64,000 nt of DNA from Octopus vulgaris (taxonomy: Eukaryota), in the NCBI GenBank assembly GCA_951406725.2, contig OX597837.1, positions 2,914,001 through 2,978,000 of the forward strand. Reading direction: 5' to 3'. A model generated the notes under the pieces. That model ran no database searches. It was not told the DNA's origin and saw only the letters and a list, made by a program, of their open reading frames with translations. A program made the translations under genes and the position numbers. Shown in pieces: positions 13,663 through 58,700 of this stretch (positions are counted from its first letter, which is position 1; each line of letters opens with the position of its first letter).

Positions 13663-13895
13663 TGCAAGGGAACGTTACCGTTGAGTTTGTTCTATTCGAG
13701 ATCGAAAGTGCGGCTGTAGACATTGAGCCAGCTTCACTCTAGATTCTATTGTTGAGCTTGTTTGGAGCTTTGCGTCGCCGAGAAAGGAATCCTTGGACAA
13801 TTCTCTCGTTTCCAGCAATCAGAATATTTACTGGCGGAGTTCGACGACAACGCAGAACACCATTCATTCGTTGTTTACATCTACCAACGGTAAGT
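13663..13895 (+). promoter_or_regulatory. Putative promoter / non-coding first exon of ZNF-A, ending in splice donor CG|GTAAGT (intron about 13890-16822)
   Basis: Relatively CpG-rich 230 bp module present upstream of, and co-oriented with, ZNF-A, B and C. Consensus donor, with a polypyrimidine-TTTCAG acceptor downstream. Confidence 0.65.
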
Positions 13896-14199
13896 TGATA
13901 AATGTTTGTTTTAATGCTGTAGTAATATCATTTAAATAATAGAATTGTGTCCCACTTGTCTGATAAGGTAATCATGGTAATTGTATGAATGGGAACAAAA
14001 TATATAAACGGCATTGGTAAAAGATGTTTTCTTCAAGAATACAGGAATTATACTGAACTGAAAATATTAATAATGTGAAGTATATTTGTCGTGCAGTTAT
14101 TGTCTATACCTCGTTCAGAGATTTATTATTAAAATAATAACAATTTGGGGGAAAATATTTCCATATTCTTTTCTATAGATGATAAAACTTCCGTCTTAT

Positions 14200-29355: not shown

Positions 29356-29570
29356 ATTTATAGAAAAGAATATGGTAATATTTTCCCCAAAATTGTTATT
29401 AGTTTCAGTTCAGTATAATTCCTGTATTCTTGAAGAAAACATCTTTTACCAATGCCGTTTATATATTTTGTTCCCATTCATACAATTACCATGATTACCT
29501 TATCAGACAAGTGGGACACAATTCTATTATTTAAATGATATTACTACAGCATTAAAACAAACATTTATCA

Positions 29571-29803
29571 ACTTACCGTTGGTAGATGTAAACAACGAAT
29601 GAATGGTGTTCTGCGTTGTCGTCGAACTCCGCCAGTAAATATTCTGATTGCTGGAAACGAGAGAATTGTCCAAGGATTCCTTTCTCGGCGACGCAAAGCT
29701 CCAAACAAGCTCAACATTAGAATCTAGAGTGAAGCTGGCTCAATGTCTACAGCCGCACTTTCGATCTCGAATAGAACAAACTCAACGATAACGTTCCCTT
29801 GCA
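29571..29803 (-). promoter_or_regulatory. Putative promoter / first exon of ZNF-B (intron about 29576-28904)
   Basis: Near-identical reverse complement of 13663-13895, with the donor retained. Confidence 0.65.
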
Positions 29804-29884
29804 TATGTCATAAGGTCACAAGGGGACGTTGAATATTTCAAGAAGTATCAAACACTTTCAATAAATTATTTTAATCTCTAAAAT

Positions 29885-30825
29885 ATGAATAGGACGTGGT
29901 GACGCAAATTCCGATGATAAACCACCGAGCAAACCTCGGTGTTCTATAGAGAGCTGGTAGAGGGAAAAAATGACGTTCTCGGAGGGGCTCAGGGGTTCGA
30001 CGAGAATCAACTCTCCAACCTGTTTAAGAAAACCTTCAGGCCGGGGTATTTAGACAATTACCAAAAATCCCTGGCTTGGCAGTGCTATAGGAATGCATTA
30101 GCTGTTCGCGATAAGTTATTTAGGCACGGAATGTCAGTGCCACCGACGTGTCCAAGATGTGGGTTGGACGATGAAACCGTTCAACACGCTTTTGTACGTT
30201 GTCAGGAGCTGTCAAGCTTTTATAAGTTACGTCGAACATGGGTTGTCGCATCTGGGACGAGTACAGCTGTCGGTTGGATCCATGATTAAGATGATACCGC
30301 CAACTGGACTCTCAAAGGAAGGTGAAGCTTGTTTTTTTCTGTACGATGGCAGTACTGAAAGTGTGTGTGTGTGTGTGGAGAACCAGAATGGAAGGTTTTG
30401 TGACAGTCCCTTGTCTCTGGCCCAGGTTTGTTAAACTTCTTCAGATGGGGTTGGAGAAGAGGAACCTGTCACAGAAAGAGTATGTGAAACGTTGGAAGGA
30501 TGTGACGAGAAAGGTGGGTGTTAGTAACCCAGCTTAATCATAAAAGAAAGGAAAAAATTAGTTGCTGGGCCTTATAGGCTGCCGGGTTCAAAATTTGGAA
30601 CCTGCATTTCCCCCTTTTTCGTTTTAACATATGTTGTTTTCTATTTTTATTAAAACAAAAAACGCACAAAAGTTCTCGTTTAAAGGCAAAAGTAAGCCAA
30701 GTTTTCGTTTATGTCATATTACAACTAAATTTTTAAGTCTCATTCGAACTTATATAACATTCTTTGTATTTGTCTGTCTTGTTATGTCCCTATCTATGTA
30801 AGATCGCATGATTATAATAAAGATT
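29885..30825 (+). mobile_element. 5'-truncated L1/Tx1-like LINE (ORF2 C-terminal CCHC zf-RVT domain + 3' UTR)
   Basis: LAWQCYRNALAVRDKL..CPRCGLDDETVQHAFVRC. Ends in ATAATAAAGATT. Confidence 0.8.
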
Positions 30826-31028
30826 TATTTGAGATCGAAAGTGCGGCTGTAGACATTGAGCCAGCTTCACTCTAGATTCTATTGTTGAGCTTGTTTGGAG
30901 CTTTGCGTCGCCGAGAAAGGAATCCTTGGACAATTCTCTCGTTTCCAGCAATCAGAATATTTACTGGCGGAGTTCGACGACAACGCAGAACACAATTCAT
31001 TCGTTGTTTACATCTGCCAACGGTAAGT
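30826..31028 (+). promoter_or_regulatory. Putative first exon of ZNF-C (intron about 31023-32649)
   Basis: Near-identical to 13694-13895. The upstream about 30 bp of the module is replaced by a LINE 3' end. Confidence 0.65.
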
Positions 31029-32912
31029 TGATAAATGTTTGTTTTAATGCTGTAGTAATATCATTTAAATAATAGAATTGTGTCCCACTTGTCTGATAAG
31101 GTAATCATGGTAATTGTATGAATGGGAACAAAATATATAAACGGCATTGGTAAAAGATGTTTTCTTCAAGAATACAGGAATTATACTGAACTGGAAATAT
31201 TAATAATGTGAAGTATATTTGTCGTGCAGTTATTGTCTATACCTCGTTCAGAGATTTATTATTAAAATAATAACAATTTGGGGGAAAATATTTCCATATT
31301 CTTTTCTATAGATGATAAAACTTTCGCCATAACTACAGATATGTACCCCACCCTCACGACTTTGTTGCCTCGTAACTCCCAGAAAAATTGATACTTTTTC
31401 ACAAATGTTTGAACAAATCCTACTTAGATACTGTAGATTCAGAGTATATAGAGATTGGCATAGTTTCGGTTGTAGTAGCACAGATTTCCGTCGCGCCAGA
31501 TTGGCATAGTTCCTAGAGATTTATTGGATAGAATTTCCCAAAGGGTTGGGGAGTGGGGTTTCGGAAAATTCACGCGATCTGATATGTTTCCCTCATAACT
31601 TTCAGGAAAATGGATTTCTTTTAATGAAAATCTATACAAATACCTTTCGAATGGCACAGATTATGATTATAAAGAAATATGTGGGGAAAATGTTTTTCGA
31701 GTGGGTTGGAAGAGGAGTATCGGAAAAATTGAGTTTCGGATGAATATGACCACATAAGTTGGAATTCCTCCGTTCTGACGGGGGATTTTTTTCAATTTTT
31801 AATGTTTTTTTCACTAGCATTCGAAATGATCTTTTTTTTTTTTCACCCCTCTTCCACCCCTTGCCCACCTCACCTGCACTATTCTCATACATGCACACAC
31901 AAACACTGATTGAAGTGTAACAAACTAGTGGCATCACAAGAAGTAGAATAAATAATTAGAACATCCCTGGTGTGGATAATGGAATGAAAACAATGTACAC
32001 TTGCAGATTTAATAAAAGGTTCAGTTCCAAATTCTGAGAACATTATTGAATATGAGAAGCAGCTGAAGAGGTCTTGAAGATACAACAACTGAAGGCATTA
32101 GTCCAGATATAACGTATACTCACTGTTTTTTTTTGTTTTTTTTTGTAAATAGGTAATGTTACACAATCTGAAGGTGTAAATATGTAAACTTCAACACAAC
32201 TTTGTTTGATGTAATTTAAATAGCAAATTAAAATGTAAAGTTTGGTGGGTAAGGTAAGTGTTTATTGTTTCATCATCATCATTTAATGTCCATCTTACCT
32301 GCATGCATGGGTAGGACAGTTGACCAGAGCTGGTCTAGTATAAAAACTACCATGGGTTACTGTGGCTATTTTAGCTGGGACTTTATGGCTGGATGCTCTT
32401 CCTAACCTCAATCACTCCACAGAGTGGGCTCTGTGCTTGTTACGTGACACTAGCACTGGTGAGGGTAGTTTTGGCATGGTTTTTACAACTGGATGCCCTT
32501 CCAAGTACCAACCACATTACAGTGTGGACTTGATGCTTTCAACATGGCAGCAGCAATTGTATATCAATACAAAATTGTTAAGTTTCAATATTGAATGTCT
32601 ACTCCTTAAATATCTTTAATATTTTATACTATTTTCTATCTCATTTCAGAATATTGGATGGCATTGGCATTTAAGGGATATACCATCAATATTGATCACT
32701 TCTAGATAAAAGGAAGATTTTATCCAGAAGTGAAATATTTCTAGAGTGAGACATTGCTCTTCTACATTGTCTGGAATTTGTAGATTCCTTTTTATTCTAA
32801 TAAAATTTGGACAGATTTACAATGGAGTTTGCCACCATGGAAACATTGCAGTATAAATGTTTTGATCAATCCAGGAATATATAAAAAGTGGTAAAAATAT
32901 CCTTACAGAAGT

Positions 32913-34289
32913 ATGGATTTTTCTGAAGAATTGCCAAAGGAGACAGAAGAATCACCGTTTTCTTTAGAATGTACCCTTGCTACTCAAAAGGATATGGATA
33001 CAAAAGAGAAATTATATCAATGTGATATTTGTGGTAAATCATTCTCTGAAAAACATACTTTAACTGCTCACAAACGCATCCATTCCAGGAAAAAGTCTCA
33101 GGAATGTAATATTTGTGGTAGATTATTCTATTACAAAAGTTATTTAGTTGATCACTTGCGTATTCATACAGGTGAAAAACCACATCACTGTGATATCTGT
33201 GGTAAATCATTCTCTCGTGCTAATGGCTTAACTCGCCATGTACGTATTCATACAGGTGAGAAACCATATCAGTGTAATATTTGTGGGGAATCTTTCTCTG
33301 AAAGAGGTAACTTAGCTAAACACAAATACATTCATACAGGAGAGAAATCATATCACTGTGATATCTGTGGAAAATCATTCTTTCAAAAAGTTCATTTAAT
33401 TTCTCACAAACGTATTCATACTGGAGAGAAACCATATGACTGTGATGTTTGCGGTAGGTCATTCACTAATGGAAGTGCAGTAACTTCTCATAAACGTATT
33501 CATGCAAGAGAGAAGCCATATCATTGTAATATTTGTAGTAAATCATTCACTGATAGAAGTAATTTGACTGTTCACAAACGTATTCATGGAGACGAAAAAC
33601 CATATCATTGTGATATCTGTGGTAAATCATTTCTTCATAGGAGTAAATTAACTATCCACAAACGTATTCACACAGGGGAAAAACCGTATTGCTGTGATAT
33701 CTGTGGTAAATCATTCTCTCGGACAAGCCAGTTAACAATACACAATAGATACATTCATACAAAAGAGAAACCATATCATTGTAATATCTGCGGTAAATCT
33801 TTTGCTGATGGAAGTGCATTGACTGTTCATAAACGTATTCACACAGGGGAAAAACCATATCACTGTGATATCTGTGGTAAATCATTCTCTTATGCAAGTG
33901 CTTTGACTGTTCACAAACGTACTCATTCAGGAGGAAAACCATACGACTGTGATACCTGTGGTAAATTATTCTCCTCTGGAAGTACGTTAACTGTTCATAA
34001 ACGTGTTCATTCAGGGGAAAAGCCACATTGTTGTGTCATCTGTGGTAAGACGTTCAGCCAAACAAGTCAGTTAACGATACACACGCGACGCAGTCATACA
34101 AGAGAGAAACCATATCGCTGCGATACCTGTGGTAAATCATTCCCTGTTGGAAGTCAATTAACAGTTCACAGACGTACTCATACAGGGGAAAGACCATATC
34201 ACTGTAATATCTGTGGAAAATCCTTCACCTATGGAAGCACATTAAAGTTTCACAAACGTATTCATACAGAGGAAAAACCATATCTCTGA
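32913..34289 (+). CDS. Poly-C2H2 zinc-finger protein (ZNF-C), 458 aa, about 15 fingers, truncated by a premature stop
   Basis: Tandem C2H2 ORF. The stop TGA falls at a finger's first Cys position (tat ctc tga gat atc tgt). Decayed fingers continue downstream. Confidence 0.9.
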
Positions 34290-35130
34290 GATATCTGTGT
34301 ATTTCATTCAAAATAAAAACCATATCACTGGTATCTTTGGTAAACCATTCTCTTGAACAAGTTATTTAACAATACATAAGAGACGTATTAATACAAGAGA
34401 GTCTGTATCACTGGGATAACTGTATTAAACCATTCACTGATGCAAGTACATTAACTCCTCACAAATGTATTCATACAAAAAAAAACCCATATAACAAAGG
34501 ATCTGTGGTGTATTTTTCTCTCTAAGTTCTGGCCTAATTAGCCACATATATTTTCATGCAGGAGATAAGCCCTATCATTGTAATATTTGTGTTAAATCTA
34601 TCTTAATGCACTCAGAACAGAAGAGATGCTATATTACTGGTGATATTTGTGGTCCCCAAAGTCTATCTCCTCCTCACCGTGGTGCGAACGCTGGCAACGG
34701 ATAGTGTCAGAGCTATGTCGTTGGGAACTTCGGTTCTTGGTAGGGCCACCCAAGGCAGATTGGTCTGACACCAAGTGGTGTTAGGGCCACAACCTGGCAG
34801 ACGGGGCTCTGGTGAAAATCCTTGGAGTGTCTGTTTCAGCAACCGGTGGCTCCTCGGTCATTCTGTCCCTGTGTCTGCGGACAATCTGCGGCAAACAGGA
34901 TGTCTCCACATTCGGGATTGTTGGGGACCGCTTGTGAAATCCACATATTCCCACGAAACTTCTTCCATGAGTAGAAGCCGACTCAACCCGCCCAGGGTGA
35001 ATGTTGCCACAAGTACAAGATATTTGTGGTAAATCTTTTTGTCAATCATTTCATTTGACTGTTCCGTCATATTCCTACAGTCAAGAAGCTTTATGCTGGA
35101 AATTATTTCATCAAGTAGAACCAAATTTTG
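34290..35130 (+). pseudogene. Decayed zinc-finger tail of ZNF-C, interrupted by an RTE-derived insert
   Basis: Frameshifted finger remnants ([43 protein letters not shown]) collinear with ZNF-A fingers 15-17 onward. Confidence 0.8.
34654..35018 (+). mobile_element. RTE 5'-UTR-like non-autonomous insert inside a decayed finger, flanked by the 12-bp direct repeat GATATTTGTGGT
   Basis: gagctatg...tagggccacccaagg resembles RTE/BovB 5' UTRs. Second copy at 39275-39597. Direct repeats at 34642-34653 and 35019-35030. Confidence 0.6.
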
Positions 35131-35474
35131 TATTAGTAGTATTTCCAACTACTAACAACGATGTTGTATTCATATTAAATAGATTTTCTTGTGGGAAGTG
35201 AAGCATATTCTTAGATATATGATGGCAGTGTTGTGACTGGAATGTGTTTGATCATAGGTCTGCTTAATAAGAAATGGCCATGGCTTATGTAACAGGGATA
35301 AAAGATGTTTCTAAGGAGAGAAGAATGTTATTGTATACTATTCCGAAGCATAGATTAAGTGTTAAATGTTAAATGTAATAGTTTATGTTGTGATAGTAAC
35401 TTCAATTCCTGAGTAAGTCAGCATATATAGGTTGTTTTTTTTTTCGGTGATTTAAATAAGGGTTTTGACTGTTA

Positions 35475-36125
35475 GTCCCGGGTTCAGTCCTACTGTGTGG
35501 TACCTTGGGCAAGTGTCTTCTACTATAGCCTCAGGCTGACCAAAGCCTTGTGAGTGGATTTGGTAGATGGAAACTGGAAGAAGCCTGTCGTATATGTGTG
35601 TATATATATATGTATGGGTGTCTGTGTTTGTCCCCTAAATATCGCTTGACAACTGATGCTGTTTTGTCTCAGAGGGGAACTTTCTCTGTGCAGTCCCATG
35701 GTCATTCATGACCAAAGGGGTCTTTACTCTTTACCCTTTTATACCCATGGCTGTGTAGTAAGTAGCTTGCTTACCAACCACATGGTTCTAGGTTCAATCA
35801 CACTGCATGGCACCTTGGGCAAGTGTCTTCTACTATAGCCTCGGGCTGACCAAACCCTTGTGAGTGGGATTTGGTAGACAGAAACTGAAAGAAGCCCGTC
35901 GTATATATATGTGTGTGTATATGTTTGTGTGTCTGTGTTTGTCCCCCAAACATCGCTTGACAACTAATGCTGTTTGTTTATGTCCCTGTAACTTAGCAGT
36001 TCAGCAAAAGAGACTGATAGAATAAGTACTAGGCTTACAAAGAATAAGCTCTGGGGTCGATTTGCTTGACTAAAGGTGGTGCTCCAGCATGGCCGCAGTC
36101 AAATGAGTAAAACAAGTAAAAGAGT
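35475..36125 (+). mobile_element. Two SINE family 1 copies (partial 35475-35660, near-full 35746-36125)
   Basis: Sequence similarity to the other copies. Confidence 0.8.
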
Positions 36126-36164
36126 ATATGCTTTCCACACACACACACACTCACATATACTGTC

Positions 36165-37975
36165 CGATTTCACTCACCTCTCATATCATTAAAGTATTTG
36201 AGAGGGTAGCGAGATCGCGAATAACTCACTGCCTCGAATCAACAGTCTGCTGAAGCCCAGCCAGGTAGGTTTCCGTGATGGCAAGGACTGCCTGTTACAG
36301 CTTCTGCAACATTTTGATGACATCTTAAGTGTTGGGAGTAGGCTCCAACACCGACTTCATATACCTTGATTTCAGCAAGGCATTTGACAGAGTGGACCAC
36401 GAAATCCTGCTGAAGAAATTGTCCAACATTAGAGTCCATAGCTGTTGGGCCCTCTCTTCTTCATTATCTACATCTATGACGTAGATGTCATCAAACATTC
36501 ATCATCATCATTGTTTAGCGTCCACTTTCCATGCTAGCGTGGGTTGGACAGTTCAACTGGGGTCTGGGAAGCCAGAAGGCTGCACCAGGCCCAGTCTGAT
36601 CTGGCAGTGTTTCTATGGCCGGATGCCCTTCCTAACGCCAACCACTCCATGAGTGTAGTGGGTGCTTTTTACGTGCCAGACGAGGCTGGCAAACGGCCAC
36701 GGTCGGATGGTGCTTTTTACGTGCCACCGGCACAGAGGCCAGGCAAGGCTGTACACTGAAAATTTTTGCAGATGATTCCAAACTCCAGAAAGCCATAAAC
36801 TGTATGGGAGACTAACATGCCTTCAGTCGGATCTGTTTGCTTTTGTCCGATGGGCACAAGGCAACAGTATGCTTCTAAATGAAGTTAAGTTTGATTTGAT
36901 CCACTTTGGGAAAGAGGATACTCTGAAATTACCACACGCTCTTCCCTCGGTTGACTCCCTAGTGTCATCCAACAACACCAGAGACCTTAGAGTAATTGTT
37001 GATAGTTCTAAGTTGGAGTTTCCACATAAACAGCAAGGTTGACTTGGCCCACAAGATGTGCTCCTTGATTCTGAGAACTTTCTAGAGATGCCCACACCAT
37101 CATCCTTCTCTACTCTGCTTTTGCCCGATCCCACCTTGAATACTGTTTTCCACTGTGGTCTCCCCATACGAAGCAACTCATTATGAAAGTGGAAGCACCC
37201 CAGAGGTCAATAACAAGAAAGATAGACGGCATGAGAGGCATTGACTGTTGGGGTCGACTAAAAAACCCTCAATCTCTACTCTGCAACACCACTGGGAGTG
37301 CTACATCATTTGTGTGATGTGGAAAATATTCCATCAATATTGCACAAATGATAATAAAATAAATGCGCCTTTTTAGAGCCTAGCGAGGCTCATGGGCCCG
37401 GTTTCACAAGTGTATGTGTTCCCCAGCTGGACAGGATGCCAGTCCATTATAGTGTTACTCATTTTTGTCAGCTGAGTGGACTGGAGCAATGTGAAATGAA
37501 GTGTCTTGCTCAAGAACACAACGCGTCGCCCGGTCCAGGAATCAAAACCACATTCTTACAATCATGATGCTGACACCCTAACCACTAAGCCATGCACCTC
37601 CATATTGCACAGATGATGTTGGCAACAATTTTAAAATCCATCCAAGATTTAGCCCCTGTGCTATCTGACCACTAAGAAAATTTAACTTAGGACATATAGC
37701 AACTTAACATCACAACTACTTTACCTCAAGCGGTCCAGCTCTCTTTAATACCATACCAAAATATATCAAAATGGAAACAGATCCCATAAAATTCTAAAGT
37801 TCACTGGACCAAAAAAATCCCTGACAGACCAACCTCTTACACCCAGATATGTCTCCAACAATAATAACTCTTTGCTAGAGTAGGCCATTGTGTCCCATTT
37901 ATCACTAAAAGACTTCACCAGGTGGTGCTATTAAGTTAGACAGGGCCTGGGCCTATAATGGCCAAAACCTATCAA
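36165..37975 (+). mobile_element. Decayed CR1-like LINE RT region with nested repeats (36500-36750, 37365-37602)
   Basis: Q.GFR.G..CL.QLL, IYLDFSKAFDRVDHEILLKKL, GPLLFIIYI, IFADDSKL, with many stops. Confidence 0.8.
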
Positions 37976-38351
37976 AGCTATATATATATATATACACATA
38001 CATACACACACATATATATATACGCATACATACACACACACATATCATCATTGTCGTTTAGTGTCCGCTTTCCATGCTAGCATGGGTTGGACAGTTCAAC
38101 TGGGGTCTGGGAAGCCAGAAGGCTGCACCAGGCCCAGTCTGATTTGGCAATGCTTCTACAGCTGGATGCCCTTCCTAACGCCAACCACTCCGTGAGTGTA
38201 GTGGGTGCTTTTTACGTGCCACTGACACAGGTGCCAGACGAGGCTGGCAAACGGCCATGATTGGATGGTGCTTTTTACCTGCCACCGGCACAGAGGTCAG
38301 TCGGGGCGGCGCTGGCAACGGCCACGTATATATATATATATATATATAGAT

Positions 38352-38382
<31 letters not shown>

Positions 38383-38453
38383 CACACACGCACACATGTC
38401 CAGATGTTTTGTCGCCTGTTACGTTCTTGTTCCATATTTGTTTTCTTTTTTTA

Positions 38454-38826
38454 TCTCTCTCTATATAAACGGCAGTTTGTCTGTGTGTGTTTCTGTGTGT
38501 CTGTTAGCTTGTACCCTCACCCTGACCACGGCTTTCAACCGATTCTGATGAAACTTAACACACACATAGCCCAATGTCATAATTCAAAACTAACGCAGAG
38601 AAAATTTTGAAAAGTTTCCCTAGTTCTGAAAAAAATCGATAAATTCAACATGGGGTCGAGAATCAGAAACAAACCACAGACTGTCTAGGGGACGCAACAC
38701 GACCGTTTTAACTCTCAAAAAAAAATTTACCATAATTTTTTTTCCATTTTTTTGGCTATAACTCTCTAAAAATGCTTTATAGTTATTTCCCTTACAAACC
38801 CGAGCAACGCCGGGCGATACTGCTAG
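38454..38826 (+). mobile_element. Short non-autonomous Helitron
   Basis: A|TCTCTCTCTATATAAA start and cgagcaacgccgggcgatactgCTAG|T end, with no TSD. Confidence 0.8.
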
Positions 38827-39089
38827 TATATACATATAGCGGCGTACATACACTTTTGGTCTCCTGTATGTAAGTATATGCATATATCTAAATTCTGTAC
38901 GACTCTTACTCTTTCATTTAGCTTCTTTCACACTTCCTTCCTTCTTTCCACTTTTCTTTTTCTCACTTGCATTTCTTGGCCTTCCCTTCATTCTCATCAC
39001 TTACCCTCCTGTTTTAACTCCCTTGTACCTCACTCTGTCCCTTTCCTTTCTTTTTCTCTCTTTCTTCTTCCTCTGCCCCAGACAAAGTT

Positions 39090-39275
39090 CACATCACTAA
39101 TATTTGTGGTACATCATTCTCTGTAATGCCTTACCTACTCACAAATGCATTATTACTGCAGAAAGACCCTATGGTTTTGTTATGTGGTACATTCTTTTCT
39201 CAAAATAGGGATTTAACTAAACACAGATTCATTCATTCTAAAGAAAAACCTGTATTACAATGATATTCACAGTAA
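39090..39275 (+). pseudogene. Further decayed C2H2 finger remnants, probably the distal ZNF-C array
   Basis: aatatttgtggtacatcattctct...ttctcaaaatagggatttaactaaacacagattcattcattctaaagaaaaacc reads as NICGTSFS...SQNRDLTKHRFIHSKEK. Confidence 0.7.
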
Positions 39276-39765
39276 GTGTCAGAGCTATACCGTCGGGAAC
39301 TTTGGTTCCTGGTACGGCCACCCAAGGCGGATTGGTCTGACACCAAGTGGTATTAGGGCCACAACCCGGCAGACGGGGCTCAGGTGAAAATCCTCGGAGT
39401 GTCTAATTTGGCAACCGGCGGTTCCTCGGTCATTCTGTCCCTGCGTCTGAGGACAATCTGTGGCAAACAGGATGTCTCTACATGCGGGATTGTTGGAGAC
39501 CGCTTGTGAAATCCACATATTCCCACGAAACTTCTTCCATGAGTAGAAGAAGCCGACTCAACCCGTCCAGGGTGAATGTCACCGCAAGTACAAGTAAAGT
39601 AAGTATAAAGAACAGGACATCAGCATACAAATCCTGCCAACAACATAACAGCCTCTCCAATGCTGACTCCATGATGAAATACATCCAGTACACTGTCAAA
39701 GTGACAGTGATAGGTTGGCCGCCAACCATAAAAAGCATTCCCCCCGAAATGGAGCATAGAAGTGA
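39275..39765 (+). mobile_element. Second copy of the RTE-derived element, continuing into an old RTE-type tail
   Basis: Aligns to 34704-35018. The 39618-39750 part resembles the insert in the ZNF-A/B/D 3' UTRs (19600-19740). Confidence 0.55.
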
Positions 39766-39970
39766 AGTGTTTTCCCTGATTCATCAAAGACATGAAACAA
39801 CCGAATTTTAACATTTTTTCCCCCTCTTTTCTGGTAGTAGTAATAATTTATTATATGTATTGTATTGGTTACTGATTGATTTCGGTTTATGAAAATAAAT
39901 TGTGTTTTAGAACGATCAAGTTGTTCGTTTTTGTTTGTCTGTTTCATGGCATTTGTTAAAGCTGTACATA

Positions 39971-40613
39971 AGGCGCAGGAGTGGCTGTGTGGTAAGTAGC
40001 TTGTTTACCAACCACATGGTTCCGAGTTCAGTCCCACTGTGTGGCATCTTGGGCAAGTGTCTTCTACTATAGCCTCGGGCTGACCAAAGCCTTGTGAGTG
40101 GATTTGGGAGACGGAAACTGAAAAGAAGCCTGTCGTATATATATATGTATATATATATATATATATACAAAATAAGAAAATGGAGAAATGCACCATAATC
40201 AATAATCAACTACCAGATAATACCCAGGTAAAACATTTTACCTTTGCCCATATAATTCAATAAATGAATTAATTGCATCGCAGTTCTTAGCATTTATGTA
40301 TTAACTTTGTTGGGTGCTTTACTGGCAGTATATTGGATATATGTTATCCCATGGTGGGTTGCACTCACAACCCCTATCTCAATTTATATATATATATATG
40401 CGTGTGGGTGTTTGTGTGTCTGTGTTTGTCCCCCTAGCATTGCTTGACAACTGATGCTGGTGTGTTTATGTCCCCGTTACTTAGCGGTTCGGCAAAAGAG
40501 ACTGATAGAATAAGTACTGGGCTTGCAAAAGAATAAGTCCCGGGGTCGAGTTGCTCGATTAAAGGTGGTGCTCCAGCATGGCCACAGTCAAATGACTGAA
40601 ACAAGTAAAAGAG
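39971..40613 (+). mobile_element. SINE family 1 split by a 220 bp insert in its (TA)n tract
   Basis: Head 39971-40165 and tail 40400-40613. The insert start resembles the Penelope terminus at 55726. Confidence 0.78.
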
Positions 40614-40822
40614 TGTAATATAATTTGGTTATTCTTTTACTTTGCGAGTTTGATTCATTCCAGGTTTTGCCTAAAATATGCTTAATTCAACATAAACAGA
40701 GCTAAGATATTTAGCTGCAGGTCAGCTGCCATCATCATCTAATGTCCATTTTCCATGCTGGTATGAGTTGGATGGTTTGACAGGAGCTGCCAAGTCAGAA
40801 AACTGCATCAAGCTCTACTATT

Positions 40823-41343
40823 GGATCTTTTCCTTTTGAATGGCAGATGTCAACACAATTTCTAGTTAACTAAACACTTTTAAACTTCGTATACTGGTAG
40901 AATGTGTTTATAAAACATCATTTTTTCTTGACTTTATTGAGAAAATTCTATAGTTTGTAAGATATTTCGTCTGAAAATCCGAGCATTTCAGCAATTTAAA
41001 CCAATTGATTACCTCCATTCAACTAAAATCATTTGCTGCGTCTAAAACTGAGACAACATCCTGTAACTAACCGTAACCCTAATTTTTTTCTTTCTTAATT
41101 GTATACTGAAAGTGTGTGTATGATGATGTCTCAGTTTTAGACACAGCAAATGATTTTAGCTCAAAAGAGAGCATAGGATTGGTTAAAATTCGAAAAATTA
41201 AACTACGTTAAACAAACAAATTACAATTTTCTCAAGAAAGCCAAGAGAAAAAAATGTTTTATTTTGACACATTCTACCAGTATACGAAGTTTTAAAGTGT
41301 TTAGTTAACTAGAAATTGTCTGCCGTTCAAAAGGAAAAGATCC
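40823..41343. mobile_element. Foldback MITE with GGATCTTTTC termini and 8-bp TSD (Merlin-like, tentative)
   Basis: Long imperfect inverted arms. TSD CTACTATT / CTACTATC. Confidence 0.75.
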
Positions 41344-42271
41344 CTACTATCAGAGAAAAAAAAGGAAGCTCAAAAGCATTTCAGCTATTTCCAGACTTGG
41401 CCTAGAAAATATGAATAATAGGCGCAGGAGTGGCTGTGTGGTAAGTAGCCTAGTACTTATTCTGTCGGTCTCTTTTGCCGAACTGCTAAGTTACGGGGAC
41501 GTAAACACACCAGCATCAGTTGTCATAAAAGGCACCATTCGAGCATGATCGCTACCAGTGTCGCCTTACTGGCACTTGTGCCCCGTGCTAGTAGGGTGCC
41601 AAGAACACCATCCGAGTGTGATTGTTGCCAGAGCGGCTAACTGGCTTCCGTGCCGGTGCCACGTAAACGGCACCATTCGAGCGTGATCGTTACCAGCGTC
41701 ACCTTACTGGCACCTGTGCCGGTGGCATGTGTAAAAAGATTCGAGCAAGGTCGTTGCCAGTGTCACCTGACTAGCCCCTGTGCCAGTGGCACGTAAAAAG
41801 CACCCACTACACTCTCTCTCTCTATATATATATATGTGTGTGTGTGTGGTTCAAATGTACAGAAAACAACAGACAAGGGAACAACAAGTAGGCCCATTAG
41901 TTTGACGCTCGGGAAGAATGGAAAAGTTTTCATACACTCTTCGACAGAAAAGGATGAGGTGGGAAAATGGTGAGAGAGAGAAAAGTGTGTCGGGATTAAC
42001 GATTTATATATAAGCATATGTACGCGTGTGTCAAAAGAAGGAATGATTATAATACGCTAAAGCGGTGGTTATCAAATTTTTGCTGATAAGCATCTTCTTT
42101 CTCCAAAATATGGCATCCACCCTAGGTTTGGCAATCATATTTGAGGGGAGAGACGGATAAACAGTAATTATTAAATCATATTTGATGAAATAATTACCGT
42201 GTTTTCCAACTCACAATATACTGTCAAATTCTAAAAATTCTAAAACTTAAATAAATTTTCTTTAAAATGTT

Positions 42272-42684
42272 GGATCTTTTCAGTTTGACCGGCAGTCTTT
42301 TCTAGTGGTGTCATATGAAATTGTCACTCATAATTATGACCCTAGTATCGATCTATTGCATTTCAATCTGTTTTAGGGTTAGGGGTGGGGAGAAGGGTAT
42401 CTTTTTTTTCTTCAGAAATGTAAATAAACCCAATCTGTTTCTTAAACGAGGGACATATTCATACGGCACAGAATGTTTTTTTACCTCAATAGACGTCATT
42501 GATTGGTTGAAATTTCAGAAATTGAAGAAAAAAACAACAAATATCTTACAAATTATATAATTTTCTCAATAAAGCCAAGAGAAAAATATGTTTTATAAAC
42601 ACATTGTACCAGTATACGAAGTTTAACATTTTTTAGTTACGTGGAAATTATTTTAAAAAACTGCCGTTCAAACCGAAAAGATCC
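42272..42684. mobile_element. Related GGATCTTTTC-TIR MITE (partial copy at about 15665-15912)
   Basis: TIR GGATCTTTTC.GTTTGA.CGGCAG. TSD AAAATGTT / AAAATGAT. Confidence 0.75.
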
Positions 42685-42792
42685 AAAATGATTTTAAAAT
42701 GTAAGTATCGCATGAGATCTAAATATTTTATCGCTATGAAAAAATTACATTTCACCAGAAACACTCAGCACCAACTTCTGCAATTCTCTAAG

Positions 42793-43762
42793 GAGACGTT
42801 ACCGTTATAATATTTGACATCGAAACTGCGGCTGGTGACATAAAGTCAGCTTCACTCGTTCATTTCAGTTAAATTTAAATTTTACGGTTGATGAAAGGAA
42901 AAGCAATTTGAATGTTGGCCGAGAATGAAGTCGACAAATCATTGGTGAACCTCATTTTAATCAGATTTACAGCTGTCAGCTGAATCTATAATAAAGAAGA
43001 TACCGCCAACTTGACTCACAAAGGAAGGTAAGGCATGTTTTTAACTGTACAGGTGGAATTACTGAAAGAGTGTGTGTGGAGGACGAGAACGGAAGGTTCG
43101 GTGAAAGGGGCCTTCACCTCTGGCCCCGGGAGAGTTTCTACCTACGCCCCTACACTACAGATTGAGCAGGGCCATCTACCTGAAGGGATTTGTGGTTTGC
43201 CTGCCTTCTACTTATTAGGACTTTGGTTTTAGCTAGGTTGACTCTAAGGCCCTTCGTTTCTAATCCTTGTTTCCACAACTGAAACTTCTCCTCCAGTTCT
43301 GATAGTGACTCAGCAATTAGAGCAAGATGGGGTTGGAGAGGAGGACCCTGCCACCGAGAGAATACGAGAAACGATGGAAGGATGTGATGAGAAAGGTGGG
43401 TGTTAGTAACCCAGCTTAATCATTGACGAAAGGAAAAGATCGTTGCTGGGCCTTTTAGGCTGCCGGGTTCGATCTTTTAATCTTTTTATTCGTTTTCTTG
43501 CTTTGTTTTCTTATGTATTAAAAAAAAAAACTTCTATTCTAAGGTTAAATTAATGAATTATATAAAATATATTTTGGTAAATTTTTAAGTGATATCATAC
43601 GAACTCCTATAACATTTTTGTTTTTTGTTTGTCCCGCGTTGTCCCATTCTGTACAAGATCGTTTTTCGATCATAATAAAGATTCCATTTTAACAATCAGA
43701 TATTTAGTTTGGTGATAACATATAACACGTTGATCCACTGTTTACATCTGAAAATGGTAAGC
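42793..43762 (+). promoter_or_regulatory. Diverged first-exon module of ZNF-D, split by a LINE insertion (donor ATG|GTAAGC; intron about 43757-46668)
   Basis: acgttaccgtt...catcgaaactgcggctg...cagcttcactc (42796-42857) and tgtttacatctgaaaatggtaagctgataaacgtttgttttaatgctgta (43739-43788) align to the two ends of the ZNF-A module. Confidence 0.55.
42996..43683 (+). mobile_element. Second, shorter copy of the same L1/Tx1-like LINE 3' end, with a nested RTE piece at 43131-43326
   Basis: Aligns to 30290-30825 (gataccgccaact...gagaaaggtgggtgttagtaacccagcttaatca...ataataaagatt). Confidence 0.8.
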
Positions 43763-44081: not shown

Positions 44082-44364
44082 ATGTTGGCATTCCTTCGAT
44101 ATAACTCGACAAAATCAAAACATTTCATTTCGGGTATTTCCGTGGAAGCAAATGACAGTCCGATTCTGTTTTCTGCTTGCAAATTGGCGGATTTTACATA
44201 CACACATGAAACAGTTAAGAACAAATATGCAAGGCTCTTTTTCTTCGAGTTTAAAAGGAGACATTTGTGGCATAATTTCGTTATATCTATACTTCACAAC
44301 CCACGGAAATATCCGAAGTGAAATGTTTTGATTTTGTCGAGTTATATCGAAGGAATGCTACAAT
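44082..44364. mobile_element. MITE-like element with about 60-bp inverted termini
   Basis: gcattccttcgatataactcgacaaaatcaaaacatttca... is mirrored at 44301-44360. Confidence 0.65.
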
Positions 44365-44621
44365 GTGAATGTTGTATATTTTATGCACCTTAACTTTCTC
44401 TCCTCATGTTTTTATCCAAATTATATCTATGTCGAAAAAAAAAATCACTTTTGAGGACCATCCTTTACCTTCAGGAATTTGTTAAATGAAATTTTTCAGA
44501 GTTACAGGCATAATTTCAAAAAAAAAAAAAATGGTAGGGTGGAATCTAGAGGCGAATTTGTTCGTATGGTTGTTTGTTATGCAATGTGCCCTGAAAATTT
44601 CATTACACTGGGTACATCTTA

Positions 44622-45506
44622 TAGAGTTTCTACCTATGCCTTTTCCACAGATTGAGCAAGGCCATCTACCTGAAGGGATTTGTGGTTTGCCTGCCTTCTA
44701 CTTATTAGGACTTTGGTTTTAGCTAGGTTGACTCTAAGGCCTTTCGATTCTAATCCTTGTTTCCACAACTGAAACTTCTCTAGTTCTGATAATGACTCAG
44801 CAATTAGAGCAAGGTCATCAGCATAGAGGAGCTCCTAGGGGCATCCTGTCTTGAATTCCTCCGTTATTGCCTGGAGGACTATGATAAATAGGAGGGGGCT
44901 GAGGACTGAACCTTGGTGGACCCCTACCTCTACCCTGAATTCTTCAGTGTACTCGTTGCCAACCCTTACCTTACTTACAGCGTACCTGTGCATGGCTTGC
45001 ACAGCTCTCACTAACCACTCATCTATCCCTAGTTTCCTCATTGACCACCAGATAAGGGATCGGGGGACCCTGTCAAAGGCTTTCTCCATGTCAACGAAAG
45101 CCAGGTACAGGGCCTTATCTTTGGCTAGATATTTCTCCTGCAGCTGTCTTACCAGAAATATGGCATCAGTGGTGCTTTTCCCTGGCATGAAACCAAACTG
45201 CATCTCATCCAATCTGACTCTTTCCCTAATAAGTTGGGCTATGACCCTCTCCGTAACCTTCATTACCTGATCCAACAGCTTGATACCTCTGTAATTATTT
45301 GTAATTAGAGCGTCACCTTTACCTTTGTAGCAGTTGACAATTATGCTGCTACACCAGTCATTGGGTATAACTCCTTCGTGTATCACCTGGTTAACTATAT
45401 GGGTGACTAGGCTATAGCCGACACTGCCAGATATTTTGAGCATCTCTGCAGTAATTCCTGATGAGCCTGGGGCTTTCCCTGTCTTCATACTTCTAATTGC
45501 CTTATC
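44622..45506 (-). mobile_element. RTE-clade LINE reverse transcriptase fragment
   Basis: MKTGKAPG, NYRGIKLL, QFGFMPGKSTTDAIF, FVDMEKAFDRVPR, GVHQGSVLSPLLF, then LLYADDL after an in-frame stop. Confidence 0.9.
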
Positions 45507-45513
45507 TATATAT

Positions 45514-45555
<42 letters not shown>

Positions 45556-45557
<2 letters not shown>

Positions 45558-45726
45558 TGCAGGAGTGGCTGTGTGGTAAGTAGCTTGTTTACCAATCACA
45601 TGGCTCCGGGTTCAGTCCCACTGCGTGGCACCTTAGGCAAGTGTCTTCTACTATAGCCTCGGGCCAACCAAAGCCTTGTGAGTGGATTTGGTAGACAGAA
45701 ACTGAAAGAAGCTTGTTGTATATATG

Positions 45727-46080: not shown

Positions 46081-47137
46081 AGAATAACTAATGAGTTAAA
46101 TAATGGAATTGTGGAGACGCGGTTGGAGGATCGCAGTTTCGATTCCCAGACCGGGCGTTGTGTGTGTTTATTGAACAAAAAAACCTAAATCTTCAAGAGG
46201 CTCCGGAAGGGGGTGGTGATGACCCCTGTTATACTCTTTCGCCCCAACATTCTTTCACTCTTTCTTCCTGTTTCTGGAGTAATGCTACAATGGACTGGCG
46301 TCCTGTCCAGCTGGGGGGACACACATATGCCATAGAAACCGGGAAACTGGGCCCATGAGCCTGGTTAGGCTTGAAAAGGGTACATAAAAAAAAAAATAAT
46401 GGAATTCCAAGAGCTGGGAACATTACTAAATATGTGACTGGTCCAGGTATAATACATAATCACTATTCTGAAGATGTAGATGTAGTCTAAATGAGCAAAC
46501 TTCACACAACTTTGTATAATGTAATTTAAATAGTAAAGCAAAATGTAAAGTTTCTTTGTTGGGGTAAAAGTTTATAGTTTATCAATATAGATTTGTAAAT
46601 TTTCACTGTTGAATCTCTGCTTTTTAATTGTCTTTTAATTATCTTAAACTACTTCTCTGTCATTTCAGGATATCAGAGACATTGACTTTAAAGATATATC
46701 ATCATCATCATTTAATGTCTGCTTTCCATGCTAGCATGGGTTTGACAATTTTGACTGAGGGCTGACGAACCAGATAGCAGCACCAGGCCCCCAATCTTGA
46801 TCTGGCAGTTTTTCTACAGCTGGATGCCCTTCCTAATGCCAATATTTATAATCCTTAAAGAATTACAGAAAAAGGTTACACAGAAAACAGAAACATTTCC
46901 TCTGTGTGTAACATTTCTCTCTATCATTGCCCGGAATATATACAAGGTGATACTGAGTTCAAATTAAATTTGCTAAAATTATAAAAGGTCATTGCAATCC
47001 TGTTCTGATAATAACAGAAATAAAAGTTGGTGGAAATATTGCAGTTCATGGAAAGGCTTTGAATAACTCAGGAAGAAAGAAAAAAATTTTTTAAATATAC
47101 TTATATTGTTGTGGGGAAATTAAAGAATTATAGCAGT

Positions 47138-49750
47138 ATGGATTTGCCTGAAGAATTGCCAAAAGAGACGGGGGAATCCTCATATTCCTGTGATATCTGT
47201 AAAAAGTCGTTCTCTCTGGAAGGTAAGCTTGCTACCCATAAATGTATTGACGAAAAAGAGAAAGCAGAAAAACGATATCATTGTGATATCTGTAGTAAAT
47301 CTTTCTCTGTAAAATTTAACTTAACAGAACATAGACATATTCATACAGGGGAGAAACCATACAACTGTGAGACCTGTGGAAAATCGTTCTCACGAATACA
47401 TACCTTAACTATGCACAAACGCATTCATACAGGAGAAAAACCATATGAATGTGATATCTGCGGTAAATCTTTCTCTCGAATACACACTTTAATTACTCAC
47501 AAGCGCTTCCATACTGGAGAAAAACCATTTAAATGTGATACCTGTGGTAAATCATTCTCTCTAAAAGGTCATTTAGTTGATCACTTACGTATTCATACAG
47601 GTGAAAAACCACATCACTGTGATACCTGTGGTAAATCATTCTCTCTAAGAAGTCATTTAGTTGGTCACATACGTATTCATACAGGTGAAAAACCATATCA
47701 TTGTGATATCTGTGGTAAATCATTCTCTCAAACTAATAGCCTAACTAACCATATACGTATTCATACAGGAGAGAAGCCATATCAGTGTAACATTTGTGGG
47801 GAATCATTCTCTGAAACAGGAAATTTAACTAAACACAAATACATTCATACAGGTGAGAAGTCATATCACTGTGATATCTGTGGAAAATCATTCTTTCAAA
47901 AAGTTCATTTGCATTCTCACAAACGTGTTCATACCGGAGAGAGACCTTATCGCTGTGATGTCTGTAGTAAGTCATTCATTGACAAAAATACCTTAAATAT
48001 TCACAAACACATTCATTCAGGAGAGAAACCTTATCAGTGTGACATCTGCAGTAAATCGTTCACAGATCGAAGTACATTAACAGTTCATACACGTATTCAT
48101 ACAGGAAATAAACCATATCACTGTGACATCTGTGGTAAATCATTCTCTCAAACAAGTCAATTAACACTACACACGAGACGTGTTCATACAGGAGAGAGAC
48201 CATATCGCTGCGATATCTGTGGTAAAGCATTCATTGTTGGAAGTGCATTAACTGTTCACAAGCGTGTTCACACAGGAGAAAAACCATATCAGTGTGATAT
48301 CTGTGATAAATCATTTGCTTATGCAACAGTATTAACTGGCCACAAACGTATTCATACAGGGGAAAAACCATATCACTGTGTTATTTGTGGTCAATCATTC
48401 ACTAGAACTAGTGACTTAGCGATACACAGCAGACGTATTCACACAAAAGAGAAACCCTATACCTGTGATATCTGCAGTAAAGCATTCGCTTATGGAAGTG
48501 CATTAAATGTTCACAAACGTATTCATACAGGGGAAAAGCCATATCATTGTAGTGTCTGTGGTAAATCCTTCTCTCGAAATTCTGACTTAATTAGACACAT
48601 GTGTTTTCATACAGGGGATAAGCCATATCCCTGTGATATCTGTGGTAAATCATACACTAGTAGAAATGCATTAACTTATCATAAACGTATTCACACAGGA
48701 GAAAAGCCATACCAATGTGATATCTGTGGGAGATCATTCTCTCGAAAGAATCATGTAAGTAATCATAGACTAACTCATACAGGAGAGAAACCATTCCATT
48801 GTGATATTTGTGGGAAATCTTTCTCTTACGGTAAGGCTCTAACAAAGCATATGCATCTTCATAGTGGTGATAAGGGATATCACTGCGATATCTGTGGTAA
48901 GTCATTCACTGATGAAAGTGCATTAACTGCACACAAACGTATTCATACAGGAGAGAAGCCTTATCACTGTGATACCTGCGGTAAATCGTTTTCTCGAAAC
49001 TTTGGCCTAGCAAGGCACATGCTTTTTCATACAGGTGATAAGCCATATCACTGTGATATCTGTGGTAAATCATTCTATGAAATAGGTAATTTGACTAAAC
49101 ATAAATTCACTCATACTGTAGAGAAGCTGTATTCCTGCAATATCTGTGGTGAATCATATGCTACTAGAAATGCATTGACTGCTCATAAACGTGTTCATAC
49201 AGGAGAAAAACCTTACCACTGTGATATCTGTGGTAAATCGTTCTCAGAGAAATATCACTTAACTAAACATAGATACACTCATACAGGAGAGAAACCATAT
49301 GATTGTAAGATCTGTGGTAAATCTTTCTCCCAGGCAGCTCATTTAACTGTTCACAGTCGTACTCATACAGGTGAGAAACCATTTCACTGTGAGTTTTGTG
49401 ATAAATCATTCTCTCAAACAGCTCATTTAACAATCCATAGACGTATTCATACAGGAGATAGACCCTATAAGTGTGATATTTGTGGCAAATCTTTCTCTCA
49501 AAATAGTGATTTGACTAAGCACAACCGCATTCATTCTGGAGAAAAGCCGTATCAGTGTAATATATGTGGTAAATCATTCTCTGTAAGTACTGCATTAACT
49601 AGTCACAAATACATTCATACAGGAGAAAGACCATATCACTGTGAGATCTGTGGTAAATCATTTTCTCACAGTTCTGCTTTAACTACACACAAATGTGTTT
49701 GTTCCAATGAAAACCTTTATACTCAAAAATTTCCTTTGTGGAGTGAGTGA
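47138..49750 (+). CDS. Poly-C2H2 zinc-finger protein (ZNF-D), about 870 aa, about 30 finger units
   Basis: The ORF track starts at GTG 47111, but the ATG at 47138 ([11 protein letters not shown]) matches the paralogue starts. Tandem C2H2 units with TGEKP linkers. Confidence 0.95.
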
Positions 49751-54732: not shown

Positions 54733-55655
54733 ATGGACAAAAAGCAAATTCACACAATTTTCTTATTCCAGTTCAAGCTAGGCTGAAAAGCTGCTGAAAC
54801 AGCTCACGATATCAACGATGCATTTGGTCCAGGAACCACTAATGAATGTACAACTCAATGATGGTTCAAGAAATTTTGTAGTGGTGATGAGAGTCTTGAA
54901 GATGATAAGCATAGTGGTCGGCCGTCGGATATTGACAACGATCAACTAAGAACCTTAGTAGAAGCCAATCCATGCACAACTGTTCAAGAGCTTGCTTCTG
55001 AATTAGACATAACTTATATGACAATTTCCAACCACAAAAATTCATGAGAAATGGGTGTTGCACGAATTGAACGAGAACCCCCAAAAAACGCCATGTTGAA
55101 GTGTTGTCTTCCTTTCTTTTACGCAACAAGAACAACTCGTTTCTCGACCGGATTGTGACTTGTGATGAAAAGTGGATTCTTTATGACAACTGGCAATGCT
55201 CAGCTCAGTGGTTGGACACCGACAAAGCTCCACGGCACTTCCTGAAGCCAAAGTTGCACCAAAAGAAGGTCATGGTGACTATTTGGTGGTCTGCAGCCAG
55301 TCTCATCCATCACAGCTTTTTGGATCCAGGCGAAAACATTGCGGCGAAGTACTGTCAGCAAATGGATGAAATGCATAAGAAACTCCAACAACAGCCAGCA
55401 TTGGTTAATAGAAAAGGACCAATTCTTCTCCACGACAACGCTCGGCCATACGTCACACAACAGACCCTGCAGAAGTTGAATGAATTGGGCTAAGAAACTC
55501 TGCCTCATCTGCCATACTCACGAGACCTCTCGCCTACCACTTCTTCAAGCATCTCGACAACTTCCTGCGTGAGAATTGCTTCAAAAACCAAGACGATGCC
55601 AAACATGCCTTCAACGACTTCAACGCCACCAGAATGCAGGATATTTACGCTATCT
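54733..55655 (+). pseudogene. Mariner (Hsmar1/cecropia-like) transposase relic
   Basis: [66 protein letters not shown] motifs with stops and a deletion. Confidence 0.88.
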
Positions 55656-55724: not shown

Positions 55725-58700
55725 ACAAAATGAGAAAATGGAGAAACATACCTAAATCAATCATCAACCATCAGATAATACCCACTCAATACTTTATTAA
55801 ACCATTACACAACAGCAATGACATTATACATAATAAATTACAAATATAACTAGACATAGAAATAGAAATAGAAAATACAATTACATTGTAGCTGACAGCT
55901 GTTTCGGCCGTGAAGACAGGTATGTCCCATTTAACCTATTAGCCATATAAAGCAGGTATAAATGAGACATTAACAAGAATGTCTCACGGCCTCTTCAGAG
56001 AATTTAATGTAAGTATGAAAAAAATTGACATATAAATAAATAAATATATAAATATAAAAATGTGTGCATAGACACTCATAATTCTACACATATATATATA
56101 CACAATAATACAATATAAACAATATATATCAATATACATTAACAAACACAATAATGTTCCATATTGAACTCATAGTTCTATATCCAACATCAAGGAAATA
56201 CATGTACACTCATATTTAAATTTAAAGCAGGCATATATATTTAACAGTCCAGTCTATTAAAATGTATAACCACACAAAAAGTCAATAAAATTAATATTAA
56301 TATTAATAATAATAATAACAAACATGATTGTACCATGTAAAGCAAGCAGACATCCACATATATACTCAATAAGTCGAATTCATCTGTCCGCTTGGTATTG
56401 ATTTTCATAGATAGATTCGATTGGCTTATAGTTTTAAATTTGAATCACAATGGAAATTTTACGGTTAGTTAGCCAAGAAACACACATACGCACATGCACA
56501 TCCACAGATCATGCGCACATACATACATAGTTATATGTATACACACACACACACATACACAGCCAAATCATAAATAAATAAATAAATAATATAAGAAGTA
56601 GAATCGCAACTATACACATGCAAAACAGAGGAACCCAACCGATTGCACATACATGCATGCAGACATCAAGCCACCCCAAACTACACCATGGATGTGGTAT
56701 TAACTAAGTAGATCCACTCACATATTTCCATAAAACAGTAAATGCAAACATACATATAATTATATCCAGATAGAGAATGTAATTTTTTATAAGGTACATA
56801 ATTCATATTACACCGTATTTTTTGTAAACATAGTATTTTATAACTAAAAAGTCCGCAAACTTAACCGCTATGCTTTATTCAAACAATCGCTAAATTATAA
56901 AGTATAGAATACCCAATATCTGTTTGACTATCAAGAGACATAAATATATATATACTAAGTTAACAACGGTTTATAATAATTAAATAAGAGATTAATTGTA
57001 AGAAGTCAAAATACGCTAATATTCTAAGATATATAATCAAAATAACTCCTTATAGCATAAACAGATATCCCTACGTAATAAATTACAATACTAATATTTT
57101 TCTATTTAAACCCTCACCAACGAACTAATAGAATTACACTCACATCTACATGTCCATATGTATACTCATGTGTAACAACAGACATACACACCATATATTT
57201 TCACATATGATGTGCGTGTAAACATTCATAGTACTTATATATATATATATATTTTTAAGCAACAGTGGACACATAAATACATATATAATAATTAACAGGA
57301 TTTAGCATTAAATAATATCAGTGGAGGACTTACCAATAAATAGTATATAAGTAAATAACAAAAATTAAATTAATTATAAGTTAATAATTGTAATTACTTA
57401 AAATTAAAATGTAATAAGATAGAATAAGATGAAATAATTAAAATTAAAATGAAAATATAAGTAAAAGCTTGTATACATATATATATATTATTATAATAAA
57501 TAATGGATATGTATGTATATATCTACATATAAATAAATAGATAAATACCATAGAAAACAAATTAAGATAAATACAAAGGTACACCTAATATATAGTACTG
57601 CTAATATGTATATATCCACATATGCATAAATGAATAGATAGATAGATAAATAACATAAAATAAAATGAAAATATACATTGAAAAGAGTACATATATAAAC
57701 TTAGTATACAGGCTACTATTATGTAAATATTTACCTATAGATAAATGAATAAATAAATAGATAAATAACATAAAGTACAAATAAAGATGAGTACAAATAT
57801 AGACTAAATATATAAGACTGCTAATATGTATAAAGCCAAATGTAAGTAAATGAATAGATTTATTAATAAATAACTTAAGATACAAATTAAGATGAGTACA
57901 AAGATACACTAAATATACAATATAGAAGACTGCCAAATAAATACCTGCAAAAACCCATATACTCATCCAAAACAAACAATATTCAATATAGACTCTCATT
58001 TATTACATATTAGTATTACAGTATCTAAAACCAGGTTCTCTAACTATGATACTTATACACACTCTGCAATTTTGGAAATCCCCAATAATATCCTATTTCT
58101 GTGTATATACCAAAATGTATATATTCTTTCATGCCACAGTGTATTTCCCTTATAAACCAGGACAAAAAACCAAAAACCAAAAACAATTAATACAGAACAT
58201 ATATATTTATATATATGTGTAACTACAAAATTATAAAATTATAAATATATAAGTTACATGTTTCAAAATTGTAAAAGACTACTAGTATAATTAGATATAG
58301 AGGAAAGTTAAAATATTACTAGTAGAAAAGCTAAGTTCTATTAAATCTAGAGAAAGTGTACGGTAGTTTATGAATGCAAAAAAAATTTTTTTCATTAATA
58401 TTATTAATAATAGGCCTACCAGCTTTGATAATGAAAAAAATTTCATTAATACATAGAGAGCATTTAAAAAATTTTTTCTATTATATACAGGTGCAGAAGT
58501 TAGTATTTTCCAATTTAATTTAAAATCTAAGTTCTTACTTTTGAGTTCCCAAATATACGCACTTAACCCCGTAGAGTACATCCTATTTTTATTTCTAAAA
58601 GTATATCTATGATAATTAAGTCTCTGTTTCATGCTATTCATAGTTGCTCCGATGTATACCCTACTGCTAAATTATGTATCCACAGTGCATTGATAAACTA

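Follow-up and report, generated by a model that had tools for sequence, protein, structure and literature searches.

A 64,000-nucleotide stretch of the Octopus vulgaris genome (here called the window; NCBI GenBank assembly GCA_951406725.2, contig OX597837.1, positions 2,914,001 to 2,978,000 of the forward strand) contains two fragments of one family of long interspersed nuclear elements (LINEs) of the L1/Tx1 group, and each is oriented in sense to an exon-1-like module of a C2H2 zinc-finger (ZNF) gene. This arrangement raises the question of whether the LINE prefers the 5' ends of ZNF genes, as a sequence-only reading of the window had proposed, or has other targets. With a probability of about 70%, subfamilies of this LINE favor a single base, either before the hammerhead motif of a retrozyme-like repeat or within a repeat resembling a miniature inverted-repeat transposable element (MITE), and the ZNF insertions are likely off-target events at look-alike or promoter-like sites. 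The earlier view is thereby corrected: the LINE does have a target preference, but selfish repeats, and not ZNF genes, are what it prefers.

The two window fragments, copy C and copy D, share the 3' terminus AATAAAGATT, which ends at 30825 in C and at 43683 in D, and the subfamilies are told apart by the two letters that follow it (TT, TC and CC tails). The genome measures 2.8 Gb and carries copies on most large contigs. Copies were sampled through two DNA searches, in which the best 40 of 413 and the best 40 of 444 candidates were scored, and through two exact 3'-end patterns (39 and 89 matches, against 0 and 1 in the controls). Of the 142 distinct ends, five were set aside as segmental duplicates and four as inverted or tandem ones, which left 133 independent ends, and the pattern-defined sets, chosen regardless of flank, comprised 123 distinct ends (36 + 87). 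Sixteen 10-kb windows (160 kb) served as the random-DNA control.

A type I hammerhead descriptor matched 27-35 nt downstream of 29 of the 133 independent 3' ends; in the controls it matched none of 2128 flank windows and one of 2660 shuffles. Among the pattern-defined ends, 33 of 123 (11 of 36 and 22 of 87) lie at one position before the hammerhead, with 24 of these calls made by the descriptor and nine by a profile trained on descriptor-positive flanks. Another 11 of 123 (0 of 36 and 11 of 87) lie at one base of the MITE-like repeat; one further end at this site was found later, and four or five of the MITE-site ends are probably one duplicated insertion. A LINE family with a target preference, as the sequence-only reading had suspected, is thus confirmed by these two sites. 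The preferred sites were entered repeatedly, since the retrozyme label changes 16 times on an 80-row tree (at least 10 of the changes on starred branches), the MITE label changes five times (all five on starred branches), and many preferred-site copies, including one of 5444 bp with a 17-bp target-site duplication (TSD), still carry a TSD and the target's upstream half. Empty retrozyme sites also exist, one form having 78 exact matches. The 16 random windows contained no retrozyme, MITE, LINE or ZNF module, and the absence of the retrozyme from these 160 kb indicates that the target is rare.

The retrozyme-like target occurs as several diverged forms of an AT-rich repeat of approximately 365 bp, either dispersed or in short tandems; upstream flanks repeat the downstream monomer, and at locus L087 the period is 364-366 bp. 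The hammerhead has a constant core, stem II, GAAAC and NUH, while the paired hexamers of stem I differ among 20 distinct forms, a count to be read in light of the fact that the descriptor itself selects for pairing. The repeat matches the description of non-LTR retrozymes, its hammerhead being predicted from the letters. An Rfam scan of nine flanks or loci returned no hammerhead and only microsatellite-driven miRNA matches. A role for the hammerhead in defining the 3' end of the LINE RNA was considered and is unsupported, as no flank listed stops at the cleavage triplet. Further 3' flanks are shared by L301 and L315, by L022 and L029, and by L210 and L211, and these pairs represent either minor targets or duplicated insertions.

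The family to which both window copies belong is best seen at locus L063, where a full-length copy of 5444 bp with a 17-bp TSD and broken frames encodes an ORF2 (second open reading frame, ORF) with an N-terminal APE endonuclease (Exo_endo_phos, E 1e-11) and a reverse transcriptase (RT; RVT_1, E 2e-29), preceded by an ORF1 with a zf-CCHC zinc knuckle (E 1e-4, above the curated cut-off). A CCHC zinc knuckle in ORF1 is a feature of the Tx1 clade. In comparisons against the PDB, the RT is nearer to L1 ORF2p (E 1e-41 to 5e-42) than to R2 (E 2e-22 or weaker), and its closest named homologues among the matches listed come from Argonauta and Acanthosepion; no named Tx1 reference appeared in the best 120 of 544 RT homologues or in the six clusters looked up. 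The Tx1/L1-type identity given to the element by the sequence-only reading therefore stands, based on the endonuclease and RT, the L1-like RT and the CCHC ORF1. The element works like a Tx1 element and is a putative member of the Tx1 clade. Family-wide, the copies show TSDs of 12-18 bp, a fixed 3' end and variable 5' truncation, with TSD-like matches at 51 of 133 ends (1 of 133 control probes) and at 45 of 113 mapped copies; insertion is by a target-primed mechanism. Three other loci (L065, L072 and L314) carry LINE copies as inverted duplicates together with their flank, and fold-back duplication may be frequent near such insertions.

Within the window, copy C (29933-30825, plus strand) is 5'-truncated and consists of a decayed ORF2 end (zf-RVT, E 3.8e-10) and the 3' untranslated region. 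The sequence-only reading began it at 29885, but LINE homology starts only at 29933, and the stretch 29807-29932 counted in by that reading is non-LINE spacer upstream of ZNF module B. Copy C also does not abut the start of the ZNF-C module, as had been thought, because homology among modules A, B and D extends 33 bp further upstream, so the junction lies 33 bp inside the shared sequence. It lacks a TSD, by which it departs from the L1/Tx1 pattern that copy D follows imperfectly, and it sits between the head-to-head modules B (minus) and C (plus), hence in sense to module C and antisense to module B. A contig from a sequencing run of another organism crosses its 5' junction with more than 31 letters on either side, so the insertion probably exists outside this assembly as well. 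A run from a further organism covers the 3' junction with 29 letters on the LINE side, too few for the threshold, and was left out of the count. Copy D (42968-43685, plus strand), whose start had been placed at 42996 and lies at about 42968, is a 5'-truncated member of the CC-tail subfamily that interrupts an exon 73 bp before its donor. A foreign insert of 196 bp (43131-43326) lies inside it and is 92% identical to 44623-44813, which adjoins an RT-coding element at 44838-45611 (minus). The TSD-like repeat reported at D is real although imperfect, with two small indels between 42954-42969 and 43686-43706.

No further 3' end of this LINE occurs in the 64 kb, as the sequence-only reading had stated, and copies C and D are separate insertions. 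They are 75% identical over 345 aligned columns, fall on opposite sides of a 100/100 branch of a 58-row tree and thus into different subfamilies, are differently truncated, and entered the module at sites approximately 125 bp apart, with D further in (about 110 bp according to the earlier estimate). A single insertion duplicated together with its gene, which other ZNF-proximal insertions show to be a route of spread, has no direct support here and is ruled out for the window pair by these differences, leaving it a negligible probability.

When the 3' flanks were checked, the proposal that ZNF 5' ends are the preferred target failed: only 7 of 123 copies, corresponding to three events, lie no more than 500 bp from a ZNF exon 1. 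One event is copy C, and the other two are outside the window, both at one duplicated locus. In the local cluster (268 kb), a LINE 3' end is present in two of 21 modules, the ends being those of copies C and D, and in none of the 17 neighboring modules outside the window. By blastn, no module was found near 29 other LINE loci, and profile hidden Markov models of the module detected a diverged module at three of those 29 loci, all duplicates of one contig 27/29 locus. At this locus the donor of one gene follows the end of an old CC-tail copy by 175 bp, and nested in this copy is a younger one that is in sense to the opposite gene. The sites near ZNF donors differ in position (73, 175, 197, about 400 and 411 bp upstream), and with few events and no shared position, ZNF exon 1 is a minor landing place. 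ZNF arrays, scored by linker count (an earlier loose zinc-finger regular expression matched 2 of 16 random windows), occur within 5-6 kb of 5 of 100 LINE loci, three of which are one duplicated locus, compared to 0 of 16 random windows. The local cluster holds retrozyme fragments (11 matches) and MITE copies (six loci), neither of which was seen in the random DNA.

Outside the preferred targets, the insertion motif depends on subfamily, and this tracking of each subfamily's main target by its off-target motif is new here. Retrozyme matches are found in TT and TC copies (35 of 38) and MITE matches in CC and TC copies, while off-target sites starting with ATT account for 15 of 24 CC-tail copies but 0 of 35 TT-tail copies (P 3e-8). 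The target site of copy D with the left TSD copy (42951-42969, plus) begins with CTCATTTTAA. It agrees with the subfamily's MITE site at all 10 letters, with no second such match on either strand of the window, and a matrix of 32 off-target sites, C and D excluded, places it among the top 0.01%. As a CC-tail copy at an exact mimic of the MITE site, D is explained by sequence mimicry. No such account is available for copy C, which combines a poor motif fit with a missing TSD, and the latter suggests that sequence was deleted or inverted when the copy inserted or later.

Several observations weigh against the reading that the LINE favors the two repeats and reaches ZNF modules off target. The majority of pattern-defined ends (72 of 123) lie at neither preferred site, and the samples are biased toward copies near C and D or toward exact pattern matches. 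In approximately seven young family-A copies the TSD and the upstream half of the target are missing, and these copies may have moved as LINE-repeat composites. The lowest-energy single-strand folds of three hammerheads are not hammerhead structures. The site of copy C ranks at the 29th percentile under the off-target matrix and fits neither motif, and no TATA is present at -31 at either ZNF site (C or D). At the contig 27/29 ZNF locus, two LINE ends are no more than 500 bp away from exon-1 donors. A third end, old and very short, is located in a ZNF coding remnant, where it precedes the donor by 411 bp in five related modules. Set against a uniform expectation of 0.005-0.054 matches in 122 ends (assuming 500-5000 ZNF exons), one further ZNF locus amounts to a weak excess, and an excess beyond chance is possible, with P 0.005-0.05 under the assumed gene numbers. 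This residue may reflect a bias toward promoters in general or the abundance of repeats in ZNF clusters.

Transcription starts offer a link among the different sites. A TATA motif starts at -34 to -28 in 10 of 15 retrozyme sites, compared to 225 of 5320 random positions (4%), and in 7 of 36 other sites, or 6 of 35 once a TA microsatellite is removed (P 0.003). In the MITE site, TATA-like words begin at -34 and -28. A TATA approximately 30 nt upstream suggests that the LINE lands at transcription starts. If so, the preferred site would be the transcription start of the target repeat, and a full-length copy inserted there could be transcribed from the host repeat's promoter. By read-through, the LINE RNA would then include the first target bases, which might help prime reverse transcription at the nicked site, by analogy with R1Bm. 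Under read-through priming of this kind, an off-target site should look like the opening bases of the target in which the source copy resides, and off-target landings would be somewhat enriched at promoter-like DNA, including the numerous ZNF 5' ends. We tentatively extend this, with odds clearly below even, to the proposal that the LINE inserts at the first transcribed base of Pol II promoters, borrows the promoter and is guided by host bases in its read-through RNA; a subfamily settling in a new host repeat (from retrozyme to MITE) would shift its motif without a new endonuclease, and ZNF exon 1, as the largest promoter family, would be repeatedly remodeled as a by-product. A changed endonuclease could equally account for the subfamily motifs. 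The natural subfamilies make it testable whether target switching in site-specific LINEs depends on the enzyme or on the RNA.

There are several alternative explanations for the ZNF insertions. The LINE may be tethered to RNA polymerase II starts in general, with the retrozyme, MITE and ZNF sites all being starts and alike only in their initiator. This is possible but doubtful: the TATA frequencies and the TATA-like words of the MITE site agree with it, as do the sense orientation of every ZNF-proximal 3' end and the off-target motif Y|A-Y-Y-T, which resembles an initiator, yet 29 of 35 other sites have no TATA, C and D occupy different positions of the same module without one, the head-to-head pairs render sense orientation partly automatic, and a motif varying by subfamily is not predicted by a host-factor tether alone. 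Another explanation, which we consider unlikely, is that without any promoter bias the ZNF insertions survived by chance in repeat-rich, redundant clusters and were multiplied by duplication. The abundance of retrozyme fragments and MITEs in the cluster and the copying of ZNF-proximal insertions three to five times with their genes would be expected under such survival; however, the two complete 3' ends of the 268-kb cluster are each no more than 200 bp from an exon-1 donor instead of being scattered, and there is the TATA excess at non-target sites.

A specific preference of the LINE for ZNF 5' ends draws on two independent insertions in one window, on two more events at the contig 27/29 pair together with one older end near related modules, and on a uniform chance expectation far below what was seen. 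It has to contend with only three events among 123 ends, with 17 neighboring modules free of a LINE 3' end, with ZNF sites that share neither position nor sequence (D being a mimic), and with an array proximity (5 of 100 versus 0 of 16) that is not distinguishable from the control. As the main target of this LINE, ZNF genes are largely refuted, and a specific preference for them is very improbable.

Tx1 elements that prefer other transposons are already known. According to the available text of PMC4494074, Tx1L inserts in Tx1D, Tx1-Mar in Mariner-N4_AMi, Tx1-9_AMi in Harbinger and Keno in U2 genes, co-transcription with the target has been discussed, and target preference is defined by more than 20% of flanks falling in one sequence type. 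The octopus element resembles those described there in being an APE-RT LINE with a CCHC ORF1 that occupies fixed positions in other repeats, and its retrozyme share of 27% (33 of 123) exceeds that threshold, whereas ZNF exon 1 (7 of 123 copies, 3 events) falls below it. Unlike them, as far as that text describes, it targets hammerhead-bearing retrozyme-like and unnamed MITE-like repeats, has an upstream TATA at its site, and leaves most of its copies off target. For R1Bm and SART1Bm, the portions of PMC7265360 available report that downstream target sequence in read-through RNA aids accurate priming; these belong to the R1 clade with strict rDNA or telomere targets, and a similar priming role in octopus would be by analogy. 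The non-LTR retrozymes of PMC7229834 and bioRxiv 10.64898/2026.07.22.740005, in the text available, are like the octopus target in their short monomer and predicted type I hammerhead, and the octopus monomer falls within the retrozyme range of 150-400 bp, dispersed or tandem. The available portions of these two sources mention no octopus, cephalopod or LINE insertion into retrozymes, and those of the latter do not mention Tx1. A LINE described in octopus, RTE-2_OV, belongs to the RTE clade and has one ORF (PMC9115989, available text, where Tx1 is not mentioned). In literature listings, which leave Repbase and subscription journals uncovered, no description was found of LINE insertion at a fixed base before a hammerhead or of a LINE preference for the TATA or start sites of such targets. 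On the accessible parts of these sources, the preference of Tx1 elements for other transposons is known, and this particular target was not found described.

The window contains five C2H2 ZNF ORFs of 15 to about 28 fingers and four copies of the module: A (13660-14193, plus, donor GT at 13890), B (29392-29806, minus, donor GT at 29576), C (30826-31326, plus, including the start of intron 1, donor GT at 31023) and D. Modules A and B are empty forms of the C site, and module C is 99% identical to module A apart from the missing 33 bp of its upstream part. Module D is split into a 5' part upstream of the insertion (42811-42953, plus) and, downstream, the right TSD copy (43686-43706) followed by the rest of the exon to the donor GT at 43757 (43686-43757, plus). 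The sequence-only reading had the LINE running into first exons; it is indeed in sense to the modules, although their first-exon status is predicted, from a conserved GT donor that precedes a single-exon C2H2 ORF by 1-3 kb. These ORFs include ZNF-C (32895-34286, plus, 15 fingers) and ZNF-D (47063-49747, plus, 28-29 fingers), and the 718 bp that interrupt the ZNF-D exon could affect ZNF regulation. At the B/C locus, the contigs listed from two presumed-RNA runs contained no spliced joint and no LINE-exon contig.

The ZNF-A, B and C modules are 98-99% identical, compared to 83-92% for the remaining gene parts that align, which suggests from the alignments that the 5' exon alone was recently copied or gene-converted among them. 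As in the B/C pair of the window, LINE sequence lies in the spacer of another head-to-head ZNF pair, at locus L024 (1036-3110; contig 29, approximately 19.09 Mb), with duplicates L025, L027 and L278; L277 represents this locus with the younger, nested copy absent. At locus L076 (5062-5628; contig 24, approximately 2.874 Mb), intron 1 of a neighboring ZNF gene contains a tail-less LINE fragment that is 98% identical to copy D over 191 bp and 88% identical upstream. Intron 1 of ZNF-D contains an unoccupied copy of the MITE-like repeat that is the second preferred target (44085-44365, minus); this repeat has inverted ends and recurs near ZNF exon-1 modules of the cluster (L328, L335, L337/L338 and L344). 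The region 58294-61191 (minus) contains ORFs that are putatively Penelope-like by their motifs and has no Pfam match; a tblastn search of these ORFs against the LINE loci placed none beside hammerhead repeats. Finally, a mariner-type transposase fragment (Transposase_1, E 1.5e-22) is found at 55071-55490 on the plus strand.

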